A DNA stretch of 62,685 bases from NCBI GenBank assembly GCA_018238545.1, contig JABCTC010000022.1:1-62685 (forward strand), in the 5' to 3' direction. The notes below the pieces were generated by a model. It did no database searches, was not told the DNA's origin, and saw only the letters and a list, made by a program, of their open reading frames with translations. Made by a program: the position numbers and the translations under genes. Source of the DNA: Candidatus Heimdallarchaeota archaeon (GTDB lineage: Archaea > Asgardarchaeota > Heimdallarchaeia > Heimdallarchaeales > Heimdallarchaeaceae). Shown here piece after piece: positions 21,385 to 49,711 of the stretch (positions are counted from its first letter, which is position 1; every line of letters begins with the position of its first letter).

Positions 21385-22227
21385 TCACCCGAACCTCCCA
21401 GTGATGTAATCCTCGGTGAGCTGTTCATCAGGTTTTTCAAATATTTTCTTTGTGTCATTGTATTCTATCAATTCACCCATATACATGAAAGCGGTTTTAT
21501 TGCTTATACGAGCAGCTTGATGCATGGAATGTGTGGCTATGATCACAGTGTAATCTTTTGCTAAATCAACGAGTAAATCTTCAATTACGTTAGTTGAAAT
21601 AGGATCTAGGGATGCACAGGGTTCATCAAATAGTATCATTTCTGGCCACACTGACAATGTTCTGGCAATACATAATCTCTGCTGTTGCCCACCTGATAAC
21701 TGTGTTGCAATATCATCTAACCTTTCGTTAACTTCACTCCACAATCCTGCTCTCTTAAGTGAAAATTCTACAATCTGGTTCAATTGCTTCCTATTTTTAA
21801 TCCCTCGTATTTTGGATCCATATGCAATATTCTTCCGAACAGATTGTGGAAAAGGTGTTGGTTTTTGGAAAACCATTCCAACTTTGGATCTCAATTCTAT
21901 AAGATCAGTAGTTTTGCTTACTATGTTTCTGTTATCAAATATTATCTCTCCTTCATACTTGAATCCTGGAATTTCATCATTCATGCGATTGAATGATCGT
22001 AAAAAAGTACTCTTTCCACAACCTGATGGACCAATCAGCGCAGTTATTTTATTTTTCATAATATCCAAGTTAACATTTTTCACCGCTCTGAGATCGCCGT
22101 AATAAAAATTGAAATTCTTAACTCTTGCAGCTATCTCAGCTGGGATTTTATAATCTCTTTTTTGATTTTGATTATCTTTAATTCTATTTTTAGTTGATAT
22201 TTGCATCTTTTTTTTCTCCTTACTCAT
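21385..22227 (-). CDS. pstB: Phosphate ABC transporter ATPase
   Basis: GPSGCGKST, MVFQKPTPF, LSGGQQQR, DEPCASLDP, TEDYITGRFG. Confidence 0.97.
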   Translation of the reverse strand: MSKEKKKMQISTKNRIKDNQNQKRDYKIPAEIAARVKNFNFYYGDLRAVKNVNLDIMKNKITALIGPSGCGKSTFLRSFNRMNDEIPGFKYEGEIIFDNRNIVSKTTDLIELRSKVGMVFQKPTPFPQSVRKNIAYGSKIRGIKNRKQLNQIVEFSLKRAGLWSEVNERLDDIATQLSGGQQQRLCIARTLSVWPEMILFDEPCASLDPISTNVIEDLLVDLAKDYTVIIATHSMHQAARISNKTAFMYMGELIEYNDTKKIFEKPDEQLTEDYITGRFG

Positions 22228-42150: not shown

Positions 42151-42918
42151 ATGGCTGAATATTATATATTTATAATAATAGGTGTTGCAATATTATTCTT
42201 AGGTATCTGGTTATTATCAGGTATAAGAGTCATGCTGGAATATGAAAGATTAGTAATTTTCCGATTAGGAAAATATACTAGAACTACAGGTCCGGGATTA
42301 GTCTATATAATTCCGATTATAGAAACTGCTAAAAAAGTAGATATGAGAATCATTACTCAGGATATTCCTAGACAAGAGCTTATGACAAGGGACAATATCC
42401 CAGTCCTTGCAAATACAGTTGTCTACTTTAAGGTTGAGAGACCTGAAGATGCTGTAATCAAAATTGAGAACTATGTTTATGCAGTTAGACAATATACTCA
42501 GGCAGCTTTGCGTGATACAATGGGAACACTTGAACTTGATCAAGTACTAACTGAAAGAGACCAAATTGCTATAGATATCCAGAAAAGCGTTGATAGAGAA
42601 ACAAATGAATGGGGTATCGATATTAAGGCAATTAAAATTCAAGAAATTGAGCTTCCTGCTGAAATGAAAAGAGCATTTGCAAAACAAGCCGAAGCTGAAA
42701 GAGGAAAACGAGCTGCTATTATCCAATCTGAAGGAGAATTAAAAGCATCTGATAACCTCGCAGAGGCTGCCAAGAAACTCTCGACTCAACGCGGAGCATT
42801 GCAATTAAGAACTCTACAAACAATTAGAGATATTGCTCAAGATCCTAGTGAGAAAATAGTTATTTTTATGCCAAGTGAAATTACAGACATAGTGGAAAAA
42901 ATAACTAAGAAGAAATAA
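42151..42918 (+). CDS. SPFH/stomatin (slipin) family protein
   Basis: N-terminal TM, EYERLVIFRLG, TRDN, QAEAER, ALQLRTLQT. Confidence 0.95.
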   Translation: MAEYYIFIIIGVAILFLGIWLLSGIRVMLEYERLVIFRLGKYTRTTGPGLVYIIPIIETAKKVDMRIITQDIPRQELMTRDNIPVLANTVVYFKVERPEDAVIKIENYVYAVRQYTQAALRDTMGTLELDQVLTERDQIAIDIQKSVDRETNEWGIDIKAIKIQEIELPAEMKRAFAKQAEAERGKRAAIIQSEGELKASDNLAEAAKKLSTQRGALQLRTLQTIRDIAQDPSEKIVIFMPSEITDIVEKITKKK

Positions 42919-42932
42919 TTAGGTGAAGGCAT

Positions 42933-43604
42933 TTGAGTTTAACAACCCACAACAGGTATGTTCAAATTGCTTTCAATGGCACTGCTCGACAAGTTAGAAG
43001 AATACTCCCTCAGATACCTCAAGATTCAAGAATAATTATTGAAGCAGGAACACCTTACATAAAACTAACAGGAATGGCTGGAGTTCATTTAATTAGACGC
43101 TACTGGCGAGGGTTGGTTGTTGCAGATATCAAGGTGACAGATGGTGCAGCTCCAGAAGTTATGTTCTCAGCTGCTGCAGGAGCTAATGCTGCAACTGTAA
43201 TGGGCTCTGCTCCTGTGGAAACATTAGATTTCTTCATTCAATTCTGTGCTAAACATGGGATGTATTCAATGATTGATATGTTAGGTGTTGATAACCCTCT
43301 TCGAAAAATGCTTCCAATGAAACATAAACCAGATGTTGTTGTGATCCATAAGGGACGAGATGAAGAAACAAACAAAAGCAATATTATTCGTTACAAGGAC
43401 ATTTCAAAAATACGGTCAAAATACGATGCTCTAATGGCTGTAGCTGGTGGTTTGAGACCAGATGAAGTAAGGAAAGCATATTTTAATGGAGCAGATATTG
43501 CAATTCTAAATGTCATAGGTGCTAATGATTCAAATGAGGGGTTTCATGAGAATGAGAATTTTAGACAACTTATACCAGCAATTCTGGCTGAGGTTGGTAA
43601 CTAG
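42933..43604 (+). CDS. 3-hexulose-6-phosphate synthase / OMP decarboxylase superfamily protein
   Basis: QIAF, EAGTPYIK, ADIKVTDG (DxKxxD), HKGRD, AVAGG. Confidence 0.85.
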   Translation: MSLTTHNRYVQIAFNGTARQVRRILPQIPQDSRIIIEAGTPYIKLTGMAGVHLIRRYWRGLVVADIKVTDGAAPEVMFSAAAGANAATVMGSAPVETLDFFIQFCAKHGMYSMIDMLGVDNPLRKMLPMKHKPDVVVIHKGRDEETNKSNIIRYKDISKIRSKYDALMAVAGGLRPDEVRKAYFNGADIAILNVIGANDSNEGFHENENFRQLIPAILAEVGN

Positions 43605-43789: not shown

Positions 43790-45040
43790 TTGGGGAAATC
43801 AAAACTTCCAACAATTATTACCGTAGTATTGCTCATTTCATCTTTAATTGCTCTTGATGTTATACGTCAAGCTCAATTTAGAGGTGATAAAGATGAAATT
43901 GTCCTGAAAGTTCTTTATACTAGTGAAAAAAAAGGTTGGATAAATTCTATTGCTCCCGATTTTCCTGAATGGTTTGCCGAAAGGAATCCTGGTAAAACTG
44001 TTAGACTCCAGTTTGAAGTTCAAGGCACGCGAACATCTATGTTATCTATCCTATCTGGAGAGAGTAAGCCTACCATATGGAGTCCTGCAGCAGCTGTTTG
44101 GATACCATTATTTGATTGGGCGTGGGAAAAGAAGTTTGGGGGATCAGTATTAGACTTAAGTCAGATTAAATCTCTAGTTGCTTCACCAATAGTTCTTGGT
44201 ACGTGGCAGAGTTATCGTGAAGAAAACAACTTCACTTCTCTAACTGATTTATATGATTTAGCTGAAGATAATTTGAAACTGGCTCACACCTCAGCTCAAG
44301 AATCAAATTCGGGTTTCATGGCCGTTTTACTAGAGATTACTGCAGCAAGTGGGAAAACTCCAGATAATATTGAATTAGCTGATTTACAGAATACAACTAT
44401 ACAAGATTGGCTTGAAAAAGTAGAATCTAAAGCAGTTCTTTATGGAACTTCAACAGGTTTTCTTGCAAAACAAGCAGTACAGCTAGGTCCATCAGCTATC
44501 AATGTTGTAATTTTATATGAGAACTTGATTATTGAAACAGCAAAAGATGGAGAAGCTTTTGCCAAATGGGGAGACAATTTAGTTGCAGTTTACCCAGAAG
44601 AAGGAACATTGTGGAGTGACCATCCCTTAGCTATTCTAAATGCTTCATGGGTGACTCCAGATGAAGCTTTTGCAGCTACTGAATTTGAAACATTCTTAAT
44701 GAGCAAAGAGGTACAGAAGGTATCCATCCCGTTTGGTTTTCGTCCTGGTAATGAGACAATTAAGGATGATTCAGATGTAATTGAGGAAATGGAAAAGGTA
44801 TTCAAACCTGAAAATGGTGTTCAATTGAATATTTCTATACCGCGTTTTGACGTACCTACTGATGGAGAAGTTCTGGATAGAATACCAGATTTGTGGTTAA
44901 AAACAAGAGCAACAACTATAGAAAAGAATGAGGATGCGGAATATTGGCAAGTAGGGTTAGAACCTGTTTTGCTTATTCCTATTATGCTTACATCACTTGT
45001 AGTTCTTACAGTTATTTACAAAAGAAGGAGGAGAAAATAA
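43790..45040 (+). CDS. ABC solute-binding protein (ModA/vWA-associated type) with N- and C-terminal membrane segments
   Basis: TSEK, IWSPAA, SPIV, SNSG, STGFL, YENL, YPEEGTLWSDHP, GFRP; C-terminal TM plus RRRRK. Confidence 0.8.
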   Translation: MGKSKLPTIITVVLLISSLIALDVIRQAQFRGDKDEIVLKVLYTSEKKGWINSIAPDFPEWFAERNPGKTVRLQFEVQGTRTSMLSILSGESKPTIWSPAAAVWIPLFDWAWEKKFGGSVLDLSQIKSLVASPIVLGTWQSYREENNFTSLTDLYDLAEDNLKLAHTSAQESNSGFMAVLLEITAASGKTPDNIELADLQNTTIQDWLEKVESKAVLYGTSTGFLAKQAVQLGPSAINVVILYENLIIETAKDGEAFAKWGDNLVAVYPEEGTLWSDHPLAILNASWVTPDEAFAATEFETFLMSKEVQKVSIPFGFRPGNETIKDDSDVIEEMEKVFKPENGVQLNISIPRFDVPTDGEVLDRIPDLWLKTRATTIEKNEDAEYWQVGLEPVLLIPIMLTSLVVLTVIYKRRRRK

Positions 45041-45067
45041 CTGACAGCTGAGGATGAGAAACTTGAT

Positions 45068-46771
45068 TTGGAAGTCAAGTTTAGAAAAAGTTTACTAGCT
45101 ACCGAAAAATGGTTGTCAAAAGATACTGTTCTTACAGCTGGTAAAGCAGTAACAATCGGTATATTCATCCTAATTGTATTGGGACCTATCCTTTACCTTC
45201 TTTTTCAGATAATAATCAGTTGGGGTGATATCAATGAAACTGTCTTCAACGACCCAATTTTAGGAAATGAAGCTTTTCTTTCTATGTTAAGATCTATTGG
45301 TTTGTCATTTGAAATAGCTGCTGTTGTAACTGTATTTGATATAGCTGTAGGGGTTCCTATGGCTTGGATTCTCGCTAGATATGAATTTAAAGGAAAGAAC
45401 ATTCTCGATACATTTGTAGACTTACCTATGGCTGTACCTACCAGTGCTTTAGGTTTCTCTATCTATCTCTTCTGGGGAACAAACAATGGTATTTCAAGAT
45501 TGTATAACTCTGAAGTAGGTTTCGCTTCGCAAGGTACACTACTTATAATATTTGCTCATGTTGCTTTTACTTTCCCTTATGTTACACGCTCGATTAAAGG
45601 TATCATTGCAGATTTAGATTTGAATTTGGAAAAAGCTGGAAAGACCTTGGGCGCATCTCCTTTTACTATAGCAAGGATGATATCTCTGCCTATGGTTAAG
45701 GAAGGACTTCTAGCGGGAACAGTTTTAGCCTTTACTAGATCTCTAGGCGAAACAGGAGCAACGTTGATAGTTAGCGGAGTGTATCAAACCGCTCCTGTAG
45801 TCATAGTTAGTTGGATGAAAGGATTAAAAATTCCAACAACAGCATTTCTTGCTTTCATACTAATAATAATTAGTTTATTGCTCCTTACTTTAGTAAGGAT
45901 TTTTGCCAGAAAAGTGGGTCTTCCATGGAACAAAGTGTTTCCAAGATTTGAAAGAAAATTAAGCTCTAAGAAAGTTACTAGAACAAGAAATACATTCTCT
46001 ATTGCTCTCTTCTTTCTTTTTGTTTTTACTCCTGCACTATTTGTTATAATCTTCTTATTCCAGTGGTGGGGTGGGTCCCCTTTCTCTGGGGAGTTTGAAG
46101 CGGGAATGATTTACCAAGTATTCCAGGCACCCGATAAGAAAATAAACGATATAGTGACGGCACTGGTAACGTCATTAGAGATAGCTCTAATCGTTACACT
46201 TGTAAACTTGCTAATAGCCACACCGATGGCCTTAATGATTTCCAAGATGAAAAATAAAAAACTCAAAGGTTTTCTAGATGGGTTGATAGACATTCCGTTA
46301 GTTATACCGAGTTCCGCACTTGGATTCAGTATATTCTTCTTATGGGGTTCTAATGGATTACATATACTATCACCAGGTTTTGCTATGATAGTAATTGCTC
46401 ATATATCTTTCACGTACTCCTATTGTGTGCGACCATTAATAGGTTCCTTTGATTCCATTTCAACTATGTATGATGAAGCTGCTGCAGCATTTGGGGCTTC
46501 AAAGATTACAGCTTTTAGAACGGTAACTTTACCATTCTTGAAGAGTGGACTAATTGCTGCTGCAATTATGACTTTTACTCGTTCAATGAGTGAAACAGGA
46601 GCAACAATTATCTGCATGGGGATAGAGAGAACAATACCTGTCTTACTTGTTGACTTCTTCGAAGCATCAACGTTTCCAGCTGCAGCATTCGCGTCAACGT
46701 TATTGATAATCATATCGTTTGTCATGCTCATATTGTTGAGAGTAGTAACAAGGAGGAAGAAAGATGCCTGA
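45068..46771 (+). CDS. ABC permease with two fused CysT/ModB-like domains
   Basis: DLPMAVPTSALG / DIPLVIPSSALG, two EAA loops, FTRSLGETGAT / FTRSMSETGAT. Confidence 0.92.
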   Translation: MEVKFRKSLLATEKWLSKDTVLTAGKAVTIGIFILIVLGPILYLLFQIIISWGDINETVFNDPILGNEAFLSMLRSIGLSFEIAAVVTVFDIAVGVPMAWILARYEFKGKNILDTFVDLPMAVPTSALGFSIYLFWGTNNGISRLYNSEVGFASQGTLLIIFAHVAFTFPYVTRSIKGIIADLDLNLEKAGKTLGASPFTIARMISLPMVKEGLLAGTVLAFTRSLGETGATLIVSGVYQTAPVVIVSWMKGLKIPTTAFLAFILIIISLLLLTLVRIFARKVGLPWNKVFPRFERKLSSKKVTRTRNTFSIALFFLFVFTPALFVIIFLFQWWGGSPFSGEFEAGMIYQVFQAPDKKINDIVTALVTSLEIALIVTLVNLLIATPMALMISKMKNKKLKGFLDGLIDIPLVIPSSALGFSIFFLWGSNGLHILSPGFAMIVIAHISFTYSYCVRPLIGSFDSISTMYDEAAAAFGASKITAFRTVTLPFLKSGLIAAAIMTFTRSMSETGATIICMGIERTIPVLLVDFFEASTFPAAAFASTLLIIISFVMLILLRVVTRRKKDA

Positions 46772-47870
46772 GATACGACTTCAAAGTGTTACAAAGATAT
46801 TCGGTAGAAAAGTAGAAGCCGTCAAGGATCTTAGTTTCATCATAGAAGATGGAGAGTATGTAAGTTTAATTGGTCCGAGTGGATGTGGTAAAACTACAAC
46901 TTTACGTCTTTTAGCAGGTACCATCCTTCCTACTCAAGGCAATATATATTTTGATGATAAATCGGTTGAAAATTTAAGTATAAGGGATAGAAATATCGGG
47001 TTTGTTTTCCAACATTTTGCGATATTTCCGCATTTGACTGTATGGGAAAATGCTGCTTATGGTCCAAAAGTGAGAGGGAGAAAAAAGAGTGAAATTGATT
47101 CCTTAGTAGAACATGCTCTCAAAGCAGTTCAGATTGATGATAAAGCGGACCTTTATCCTCCTTCATTATCCGCACCTGATTGGCAAAAAACAGCATTAGC
47201 TAGAGTTGTAGCTTCAGAAGCAAAAATTCTTCTTCTAGATGAGCCATTAGGTGCATTAGATCAGAAAATAAGAGAAGAGTTTCAAATATTCCTTCGTGAT
47301 TTAGTCAAGAAGGAAGGGTTAACAGCTATTCATGTCACCCATGATCAAGCTGAAGCATTAACAATTAGTGATAAAGTAGCTGTAATGAATAAAGGAAAAT
47401 TGGTACAACTAGGTTCAGCATCTGACTTGATATTTACACCCAATAACATCTTTACATCTTTCTTTGTGGGTGAATCAGATTTTCTTGAATCTGTTGTAAT
47501 GAATGATAGAAAGGATTTTGCAGAAGTAAGAGTTGGTCAATCAACTATCAAAGTCAAAAACATGGGTATTGCACGAGGTAAAAGAGCAGTTGTGGCTGTT
47601 CGAAGAGAGTTTTTCAAAGTACACAAATATAAAGATAAAATTAAAAAAGAAAACTTCCTACCAGGAGTGGTAGTGAGAGATCAATTTCTAGGATTATTAA
47701 GAAGAGTTAGAGTTAAACTTGAGAATCAACAGATTGTAGAAGTAAAAATTCATGCCAAACATCCTATTCGTTTCAAGGTAAATGAAAAAGTAAGGTTGGT
47801 GATTGATCCTTCTACAACAAGATGTTTTGAATATCCTGAAAAAGGTGTTGCTTCAGCGCTGGAGATGTGA
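46764..47870 (+). CDS. ABC ATPase 1 (MalK/PotA-like, TOBE) with degenerate signature
   Basis: GPSGCGKTT, FQH, LSAPD in place of LSGGQ, LLLDEP, VTHDQ. Confidence 0.93.
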   Translation: MPEIRLQSVTKIFGRKVEAVKDLSFIIEDGEYVSLIGPSGCGKTTTLRLLAGTILPTQGNIYFDDKSVENLSIRDRNIGFVFQHFAIFPHLTVWENAAYGPKVRGRKKSEIDSLVEHALKAVQIDDKADLYPPSLSAPDWQKTALARVVASEAKILLLDEPLGALDQKIREEFQIFLRDLVKKEGLTAIHVTHDQAEALTISDKVAVMNKGKLVQLGSASDLIFTPNNIFTSFFVGESDFLESVVMNDRKDFAEVRVGQSTIKVKNMGIARGKRAVVAVRREFFKVHKYKDKIKKENFLPGVVVRDQFLGLLRRVRVKLENQQIVEVKIHAKHPIRFKVNEKVRLVIDPSTTRCFEYPEKGVASALEM

Positions 47871-47873
47871 TTC

Positions 47874-48971
47874 ATGGTTAAGCTAGAGTTAGATAATATT
47901 ACCAAATATTATGGAAAAAGAAGAGGAGTAGAAAACATCAACCTCTCTATTGAAGACGGTGAATATCTAGCTGTACTTGGTCCAACAGGTTCAGGAAAAA
48001 CCACTACTATGTACCTTGTTGCTGGACTTCTATCTCCTTCTGAAGGGAAAATTTTGTTTAATGGTGAAGACGTAACCAAGGTACCCTCTGAAGATAGAAA
48101 TGTTGGTTTTGTGTTCGAAGAGTATAATTTGTTTCCACGAATTAATGCTGAATCAAACGTTCTTTTTGGTCCCATTGTAAAGGGTCTTGATTTATCTGAT
48201 TCTAGACAAGTAGCTCGTGAAATGTTTTCCCTACTAAATATAGCTGGTAAAGAAATGAATTTTCCTGATGAAATTAGTGGTGGCCAGAAACAAAGGGTAG
48301 CTTTAGCTCGAGCTATTGTCTCTAATGCTAATTTACTTGTGATGGATGATCCTTTGCGTGCCTTAGATGCGAAAATCAGGGAAATACTTCAAGTTGAGCT
48401 AAGGAATTTAGTCAAGGATCTTAGTTTGACTTGTATCCATGCTACACATGATACACAAGAGGCAATGCGAGTAGCTGATAAAATAGCAGTGTTTAAGGAT
48501 GGAGCTATTGTCCAATTTGGAACTCCAGAAGAGGTTTACAATAATCCCGTTTCGATTTATGTAGCAAACTTCTTAGGTGAAACAACAGAATTAGAGGGAA
48601 CGATTTTACAAGAGAAAGGACAGAGTTTCCTTATTCTTGAAGATATCAAGATTGAGATTGTAACCGACTTGAAATCTGGAACAAAAGCTGTTGCTCTAAT
48701 TCCTGCAGAATTAGCAGATATTCATTCTTTATCAGAGAGAGAGAGACTAAATTATGATAATATTATAGAAGCTGAAATTATCAGTACAAAGTGTGTAGGA
48801 GAGTTTTTTGATGTTGATTTGATTGCATTTAATCAAGAAATCAAAGCAAAAGAATTGATAGGAAATGACGTTCCTTTGACTGAAGGAAACAAAGTTTTGT
48901 TTGCTACAGATAAAGGTGATTTTAGAGTTTTCCCCATTGAAGAGGACGAGAAAAATGAGAAAGAGATTTAA
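47874..48971 (+). CDS. ABC ATPase 2 (MalK/PotA-like) with degenerate Walker B and Q-loop
   Basis: GPTGSGKTT, FEE, ISGGQ, LVMDDP, ATHD. Confidence 0.93.
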   Translation: MVKLELDNITKYYGKRRGVENINLSIEDGEYLAVLGPTGSGKTTTMYLVAGLLSPSEGKILFNGEDVTKVPSEDRNVGFVFEEYNLFPRINAESNVLFGPIVKGLDLSDSRQVAREMFSLLNIAGKEMNFPDEISGGQKQRVALARAIVSNANLLVMDDPLRALDAKIREILQVELRNLVKDLSLTCIHATHDTQEAMRVADKIAVFKDGAIVQFGTPEEVYNNPVSIYVANFLGETTELEGTILQEKGQSFLILEDIKIEIVTDLKSGTKAVALIPAELADIHSLSERERLNYDNIIEAEIISTKCVGEFFDVDLIAFNQEIKAKELIGNDVPLTEGNKVLFATDKGDFRVFPIEEDEKNEKEI

Positions 48972-49039
48972 CCAAACAAAGTATATTTATTATTTAGAGC
49001 AGAGAGAATTGTCAATTTATAGAAATGAGAGGTGTCAAT

Positions 49040-49711
49040 ATGAGCAATAAAGAGCTAAAACACTGGTTAAGTAAAAGGAGAGAATCTAAAGTTTTGAAGC
49101 GAATCAGAGAACATTTGATTCTTGTTAACAGTTGTATAACCAAAGCCAGAGATTTCTATGCCTTCTGGGTAGAGAAAGATGAAGAAGCAGCAAAAAACAT
49201 GTACGATTTAATTCATCAAGAAGAAAAAACAGCAGATATTGTAGAAGCTGATATTCTTGATATGCTTTCAGAGGGCAGAATGCCAGTTTACGTTAGAGCA
49301 GACTTAATAAACTTCATAAGACTTGCAGATAAGTCTGCAGGTAGAATAAAACAAGGGACAAATAACCTTTTACTCCTAATAAAAATAGAATTTCCTGAGA
49401 ATATAGTTAAGATTCTCAAATCCAATTTCGAACTGCTAGTAGAAGAAGTTCAAGGCTTCACAAAAGTATTCGATTCAATGTTCTCTATAGAACATGATGA
49501 ATTAGTGAAAGAGATTGAGAAAGTGAGTGAAATAGAAACCGCTATTGATAAAAACTACAGGCAATTGAAATATGAATTAGCATATTCTACAAAAGATGTA
49601 CCTGCCGGTGCATTAATCGTTTTGGATCATGCTATAAGAGATATCGAGCTTTCTTCTGATTTAATTGAAGATTGTGCAGAAATGGTAAGAAGTTTAGTGC
49701 TTCTCCAATAA
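49040..49711 (+). CDS. DUF47/TIGR00153 PhoU-like phosphate transport regulator
   Basis: EKTAD, RADL, ETAID, SDLIEDCA helical repeats. Confidence 0.85.
   Translation: MSNKELKHWLSKRRESKVLKRIREHLILVNSCITKARDFYAFWVEKDEEAAKNMYDLIHQEEKTADIVEADILDMLSEGRMPVYVRADLINFIRLADKSAGRIKQGTNNLLLLIKIEFPENIVKILKSNFELLVEEVQGFTKVFDSMFSIEHDELVKEIEKVSEIETAIDKNYRQLKYELAYSTKDVPAGALIVLDHAIRDIELSSDLIEDCAEMVRSLVLLQ

Follow-up and report, generated by a model that had tools for sequence, protein, structure and literature searches.

An Asgard archaeal type I ABC importer with two unequal ATPases, one consensus ATP site and one predicted degenerate ATP site

Each ATP pocket of an ATP-binding cassette (ABC) transporter is built from both subunits, one supplying the Walker A and Walker B motifs, Q-loop and H-loop, the other the signature motif. 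In the heterodimeric exporters TM287/288, TmrAB, TAP1/2, CFTR and MRP1, two different nucleotide-binding domains (NBDs) are used and the deviations from consensus are sorted into one composite site, in which the Walker B Glu has become Asp and the partner signature is non-consensus, while the other site is consensus. The same sorting is seen in an importer encoded at positions 43790-48971 of a 62,685-nucleotide stretch of DNA (the window; contig JABCTC010000022.1, assembly GCA_018238545.1) from Candidatus Heimdallarchaeota archaeon. The exporters differ from it in having exporter-fold transmembrane domains that are fused to the NBDs and operate without a binding protein, whereas the Asgard importer has BPD_transp_1 permease halves, a binding protein and MalK/PotA-type NBDs with TOBE tails; in further distinction from the exporters, it keeps the H-loop His in the degenerate site and has lost the Q-loop Gln family-wide. 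Because its NBDs are separate soluble proteins and its transmembrane domains are BPD_transp_1, it falls outside the exporter fold. Judged from its sequence, the importer would work like the consensus/degenerate heterodimeric exporters, yet it does not belong among them.

Among importers, one degenerate site has been noted in the fused two-NBD ATPases of RbsA and NupO (CUT2-type), which resemble the Asgard system in being binding-protein-dependent, in having unequal NBDs and in having one ATP site predicted to be incompetent (PMC11466899). They differ in that their NBDs are fused in one polypeptide, in being classed as "type II importers" (PMC11466899) and in having lost the Walker A Lys, whereas the Asgard importer uses two separate genes of the MalK/PotA/CysA class in which Walker A is intact in the window lineage. 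The nearest solved relatives are MalK, PotA (8y5f), CysA (1z47), ModC (3d31), the archaeal MalK-like 2it1 and 1v43, and GlcV (1oxs), with E values of 1e-55 to 1e-68. These ATPases, whose C-terminal domains are regulatory, have in common with the Asgard NBDs an NBD followed by a TOBE-like tail and a type I importer context, but all of them are homodimers with two identical consensus sites. Systems of the FbpABC, ThiBPQ and PhnS2T2U2 type likewise share a single fused two-domain permease, a predicted cluster-D binding protein and a PotA-like ATPase. Among NCBIfam models both Asgard NBDs match PhnT2 best (283.0 and 275.1 bits, cut-off 457.7), and the fold of the Asgard binding protein is matched best by a group that includes FbpA, PhnS and sulfate-binding protein. 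These systems differ in having one ATPase gene, and hence a homodimer. A literature search, incomplete for subscription journals, found no degenerate-site type I importer of the MalK/PotA class. Degenerate sites are already described for exporters and for RbsA/NupO, and their extension to the MalK/PotA class, as predicted here, appears to be new.

The two cytoplasmic ATPases, NBD1 (368 amino acids, 46764-47870) and NBD2 (365 amino acids, 47874-48971), are encoded on the + strand, as is the rest of the operon; each carries the Pfam ABC ATPase domain PF00005, and they are about 33% identical to each other (32% in a profile comparison). Motifs were located in the translations, and an alignment made with HMMER to 2it1, a solved MalK-like ATPase, set positional homology. 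In NBD1, Walker A (GPSGCGKTT, 46872-46898), the Q-loop (VFQH, Q83, 47004-47015), Walker B (LLLDEP, E160, 47229-47246) and the H-loop (VTHD, H193, 47334-47345) are all canonical, and the signature, LSGGQ in canonical form, reads LSAPD (47166-47180). In NBD2 the signature ISGGQ (48273-48287) is canonical and aligns with the LSGGQ of 2it1, and Walker A (GPTGSGKTT, 47979-48005) and the H-loop (ATHD, 48441-48452) retain their Lys and His, as the A-loop retains its Tyr. The Q-loop of NBD2 reads VFEE (48111-48122), in which E82 occupies the position of the Q-loop Gln, and its Walker B reads VMDDP (48339-48353), in which D159 occupies the position of the catalytic Glu.

Site I is defined here as the catalytic motifs of NBD1 with the ISGGQ of NBD2, and site II as the catalytic motifs of NBD2 with the LSAPD of NBD1. 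Since a pocket joins the catalytic motifs of one subunit to the signature of its partner, all three deviations sit in site II, and site I is fully consensus, both in the window and in the wider family described below. In site II, Asp stands in for the catalytic Glu and Glu for the Q-loop Gln, and the two signature glycines are missing; in the Heimdallarchaeaceae clade it keeps the A-loop Tyr, the Walker A Lys and Thr, the Walker B Asp and the H-loop His. An earlier note on this DNA, made from the sequence alone, had described NBD1 as canonical except for LSAPD and NBD2 as having a canonical ISGGQ with a Walker B Asp and a Q-loop Glu, and had placed the three defects in one composite site with the other intact; translation, motif mapping and the 2it1 alignment reproduce all of this. 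It had further argued that random decay would be unlikely to sort the defects so neatly. For a single genome that argument is weak, the chance that three deviations share one composite site being 0.25, so the real test of the sorting is comparative, and there it is significant.

Scanning about 186,000 species genomes with the permease yielded 23 close Asgard loci, the nearest of which carry the titles Candidatus Heimdallarchaeota and Heimdallarchaeum. All 20 of the close loci that hold both ATPase genes have LSAP[DE] in NBD1 together with FEE and MDDP in NBD2, with the remaining ATPase motifs canonical, a pattern that holds to about 60% identity. When 5.8 billion proteins were searched, 34 NBD1 and 37 NBD2 cluster representatives at 58% identity or more were obtained, in which the L, A and P of LSAPD (34 sequences, Heimdallarchaeaceae clade) and the FEE and MDDP motifs (37 sequences) are invariant; about 31% of columns are invariant in these sets, the deviant residues among them. 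The co-occurrence and conservation that the earlier note had proposed to look for in orthologous operons are thus present at both levels, and the deviant residues are identical in the 20 close loci, none of which has the canonical motifs. One of the close loci, L005 (JBHLQZ010000009.1), is titled Candidatus Thorarchaeota; its operon groups within the Heimdallarchaeaceae clade at 72-85% identity to the window proteins, and the Thorarchaeota label of the bin may be wrong.

The trait extends well beyond this clade. NBD1-like proteins with spoiled signatures occur at 43-53% identity in bins named Kariarchaeaceae, Hodarchaeales, Helarchaeota and Asgardarchaeia, and relatives with a canonical LSGGM signature start at about 45% identity. 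A search of 399 Asgard genomes identified 73 with a close NBD1 match, from which 28 distant loci were retrieved. Twenty of these, spanning 13 of our family codes (numbered with f), hold a binding protein, a fused permease and two ATPases with complementary degeneracy, here called NBDa (the NBD1 type) and NBDb (the NBD2 type); three of the 20 contigs stop before the upstream genes. Layout and complementary degeneracy therefore recur in at least 13 Asgard families. In all 20, the Walker A, Q-loop, Walker B and H-loop motifs of NBDa are intact and its signature is spoiled; family-wide, that signature follows L[SNDT][AT][PA][DEQ], or FGNPG in Loki-type families. NBDb, conversely, keeps SGG in all 20 and has a Q-loop residue other than Gln, namely Glu in 18 and Ala in L071 and L072 (f28).

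The catalytic motifs of NBDb have been eroded in different ways in different lineages. The Walker B change from Glu to Asp is an extra loss specific to Heimdallarchaeaceae: among mapped loci DDP is limited to that clade (the unplaced cluster representative P0282 also has DDP), and the other lineages have DEP or DQP. In the Kari-type family f4 (L065-L068) the Walker A Lys is Pro (GxxGxGPS) and the Walker B Glu is Gln (LDQP), so that site II in this lineage is, as far as its motifs tell, almost certainly unable to bind nucleotide. Families f15-17 have replaced the H-loop His with Gln and carry a two-residue insert in the Q-loop; f28, f30, f19 and f20 have replaced the same His with Asn, and f30 has in addition changed its Walker B Glu to Gln. 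The A-loop aromatic residue is lost in NBDb of f3, f4 and L074, and the Kari-type L064 (f3), which has lost it, keeps the Walker A Lys and DEP. By our own count across the family alignments, at least 11 independent changes have fallen in site II and 0 in site I. The invariant columns mirror this division: GPSGCGKT, Q83, D159-E160 and H193 are invariant in NBDa family-wide, and among 16 diverse NBDb sequences S135-G136-G137 is invariant and the Lys, Glu and His are not.

A maximum-likelihood tree of 63 NBDs places the degenerate-signature NBDa sequences in one clade (Shimodaira-Hasegawa-like approximate likelihood ratio test 97) and all NBDb sequences on one side of a split with support 96. The two subtrees are congruent and follow the same lineage order, and the two genes are adjacent and co-diverging in the 40 loci inspected (20 close, 20 distant), a pattern that fits one ancient duplication followed by co-divergence of NBDa and NBDb. 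Three further loci, L079, L082 and L100, have the same layout with both NBDs nearly canonical, which indicates that the architecture of two ATPases and a fused permease predates the degeneracy. Of these non-degenerate relatives, a binding protein is seen in L079 and a DUF47 gene is shown for L100. The second ATPase of L079 and several cluster representatives (e.g., P0285, P0291 and P0323) have a milder signature deviation, LSRG[AML]QQK, which may be an independent or an early stage of asymmetry. The family is small; a HMMER search of 1.84 billion cluster representatives with the NBDb profile returned about 17 with a Glu Q-loop in the top 150. All taxon-named members are Asgard, except one bin titled Thorarchaeota inside the Heimdallarchaeaceae clade. 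Asymmetric motifs as a general trait of the ABC pairs of this genome were considered and rejected: on contigs C8 and C119, NBD pairs of the Opp/Dpp type show consensus Walker A and signature motifs, and consensus Walker B and Q-loop motifs too where these are readable.

We consider it likely that NBD1 and NBD2 form an obligate heterodimer with one catalytic site, in which site II binds ATP and hydrolyses it poorly. The two paralogous MalK/PotA-type ATPases would pair beneath one fused double permease. An intact pocket arises only in the NBD1-NBD2 heterodimer, since both sites of either homodimer would be defective, and a heterodimer with one working pocket is also what the invariance of the deviations in close loci and their complementarity across the 20 distant loci argue for. 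Site I would perform the hydrolysis that resets the pump; site II, in Heimdallarchaeaceae, would hold ATP, help to close the dimer and hydrolyse slowly or not at all, as in exporters of the TM287/288 type, and about one ATP would be spent per transport cycle. A review names the Walker B change from Glu to Asp as the cause of blocked hydrolysis in the degenerate site of TM287/288, and reports that the histidine importer needs no more than one active site (PMC3971661). We infer heterodimer assembly, ATP occupancy of site II, the absence of hydrolysis there and the stoichiometry from what is observed: conserved motifs, a pair of genes that arose once and co-diverged, and erosion that has repeatedly struck site II only. 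Of the asymmetric heterodimer proposed in the earlier note, the interpretation as such is supported by the ortholog and family data, and the obligate nature of the pairing is still a deduction. Two points weigh against this model. An Asp at the catalytic position, together with the retained signature Ser, could allow residual hydrolysis in site II. Also, in G278 (f21), a single 3.7-Mb contig rated 63% complete, no NBDb was found at the locus or elsewhere, and an NBDa-type ATPase with the signature LSTPE (L102/L104, G278:C1 ~3098909-3099892) adjoins a fused permease; this locus may be in decay, or subunit a may in some cases do without b. The binding-protein match in G278 spans query residues 208-373 only, within an open reading frame of 530 amino acids.

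The same observations bear on how far site II has been disabled. If both sites hydrolysed ATP, the substitutions would merely retune kinetics, with Asp acting as a weaker general base and the signature Ser kept; the changes are indeed charge-conservative (Glu to Asp, Gln to Glu) and all nucleotide-binding residues are retained. In sister lineages, however, site II, and that site alone, has gone on to lose its Walker A Lys, its Walker B Glu (now Gln) and its H-loop His, losses that are expected only if hydrolysis there is dispensable, and the effect attributed to Glu to Asp in TM287/288 (PMC3971661) speaks against activity as well, so that we regard two hydrolytic sites as unlikely. At the other extreme, NBD2 could be purely structural or regulatory, with a site II that binds no nucleotide and a single ATP closing the dimer. 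The Pro and DQP of f4 NBDb and the missing A-loop aromatic in f3 and f4 point in this direction, and the f4 lineage suggests that the family can manage without nucleotide binding in site II. In the window clade, however, NBD2 retains G-x-T-G-x-G-K-T, the A-loop Tyr, the Walker B Asp and the H-loop His, and its deviant residues are invariant, not drifting, which makes a non-binding site II improbable there.

Two other explanations would remove the heterodimer altogether. Were each ATPase a homodimer, the two alternating on this permease or serving different transporters, the NBDa-type gene of G278 with no detectable NBDb would be readily understood, and the nearest solved relatives are all homodimers. 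Against this stand the adjacency and co-divergence of the genes in all 40 inspected loci and the composition of the resulting sites, since an NBDa pair would have two spoiled signatures and an NBDb pair two sites without the catalytic Glu and the Q-loop Gln; the complementary pattern would have no rationale, and we give separate homodimers very little credence. Strain-specific decay, a pseudogene or sequencing error has nothing in its favour except the deviation from consensus itself, and is the least probable account of all. Twenty independent genome bins that contain both genes agree in the deviant residues, and the reading frames of the operon genes are all open. Metagenome contigs from four independent studies list no change at the codons of these residues; within the codons for ISGGQ, independent contigs from sediments and cold seeps differ at three positions (48278 T>C, 48284 C>T and 48287 G>A), none of which alters the amino acid. 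By these comparisons, strain decay and sequencing error are excluded as the source of the deviant motifs, and the heterodimer with one catalytic site is the account that we retain.

The remaining genes identify the system as a binding-protein-dependent type I ABC importer. The permease (567 amino acids, 45068-46771) contains two stretches of Pfam BPD_transp_1 (PF00528, 4.1e-30). Its halves are 30-38% identical to each other by tblastn, each holds an EAA coupling loop that is readable in the translation and each resembles ModB/CysT; the two BPD_transp_1 stretches and the likeness of the halves bear out the earlier suggestion of a type I importer with a fused pseudo-dimeric permease. In 17 of 17 distant loci with the ATPase pair the permease gene is likewise fused. 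Against the modB_ABC and Mo_ABC_porter models the window permease reaches 213 bits (cut-off 182.6) and 219 bits (cut-off 210.3), these scores being summed over the two halves. The NBDs reach none of the NCBIfam equivalog cut-offs (PotA, PhnT2, CysA, WtpC, MalK and others), with PotA, for example, scoring 277.1 against a cut-off of 482. The tail of NBD1 matches TOBE_2 at 24.7 bits (cut-off 21), and that of NBD2 has no Pfam match; the NBDa and NBDb profiles align end to end, the TOBE-like tail included.

Five genes are densely packed on the + strand between 43790 and 49711. The permease and NBD1 genes share 8 nucleotides, 3 nucleotides separate the NBD1 stop from the NBD2 start, and 53 nucleotides lie between NBD2 and a gene for a DUF47/PhoU-like protein (228 amino acids, 49025-49711; Pfam PF01865, 2.3e-15). 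Genes for an SPFH/Band 7 protein and an OMP-decarboxylase-family (HPS-like) protein at 42151-43604 were excluded from the conserved unit because they recur in 8 close loci only and at a variable distance from the binding-protein gene.

The first gene of the unit encodes the substrate-binding protein (416 amino acids, 43790-45040), which matches Pfam SBP_bac_11 (7.7e-11) and also SBP_bac_8, and which carries a membrane helix at its N-terminus and, at its C-terminus, a membrane anchor that finishes in a basic tail. This C-terminal anchor is present only in the Heimdallarchaeaceae and f4 orthologs, other Asgard orthologs ending about 40 residues earlier. Across 19 Asgard orthologs 41 residues are invariant. 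An AlphaFold model (predicted local distance difference test 88) has the bilobed fold of substrate-binding proteins, and its top Foldseek matches are sulfate-binding protein, PhnS, FbpA, AfuA, ModA and PotD (TM score about 0.55, about 15% identity), so that by its model the protein is assigned a fold of the cluster-D type. The fold match is about equal for binding proteins of sulfate, 2-aminoethylphosphonate, Fe3+, sugar-phosphate, molybdate and polyamines; phmmer found no match among PDB sequences, and no NCBIfam model was matched. Because the fold matches are generic and neither PDB nor NCBIfam gives a match, no substrate is assigned; candidates are small anions, phospho-compounds and metals. 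A role as the main phosphate importer of the cell was rejected, since the genome has separate phosphate uptake systems: a true PstB is encoded in the window at 21388-22125 on the - strand (TIGR00972, 377.8 bits against a cut-off of 343.2), and a PiT and DUF47 pair lies on contig C8. A phosphate-related substrate is possible.

The DUF47/PhoU-like gene lies directly downstream of NBD2 in all 20 Heimdallarchaeaceae loci that reach that far, and it is adjacent in 14 distant Asgard loci as well, the non-degenerate L100 included. PhoU acts on PstB, and by this analogy the DUF47/PhoU-like protein is probably a regulator of the pump. A more far-reaching interpretation, which seems to us rather doubtful, is that the loci represent an ancient pan-Asgard family of importers with one hydrolytic site, in which the impaired site and the DUF47/PhoU-like protein would form a regulatory latch or an energy saver that halves the ATP cost of uptake for archaea living in energy-starved sediments. 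The lineages would then make up a series that runs from an ATP-binding but hydrolysis-impaired site II (Heimdallarchaeaceae), through losses in the H-loop or Walker B, to a non-binding site (Lys to Pro).

How many ATP molecules binding-protein-dependent importers hydrolyse per cycle is a long-standing open question, which has been studied for the most part in homodimers, HisP and MalK among them, that were engineered to carry a single-site mutation. The loci described here would provide a naturally occurring type I importer whose combination of a consensus with an impaired site has been fixed across the depth of the Asgard archaea, and the sister lineages, with their graded dismantling of the second site, would offer a comparative series for asking whether that site serves as dimer glue, in regulation or for nothing. 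The consensus/degenerate design would then reach beyond exporters and fused CUT2-type ATPases into the MalK/PotA class. Eukaryotic ABC transporters often have degenerate sites, and the present case is a conserved and unannotated trait in the closest archaeal relatives of eukaryotes, by which no direct evolutionary link is implied.

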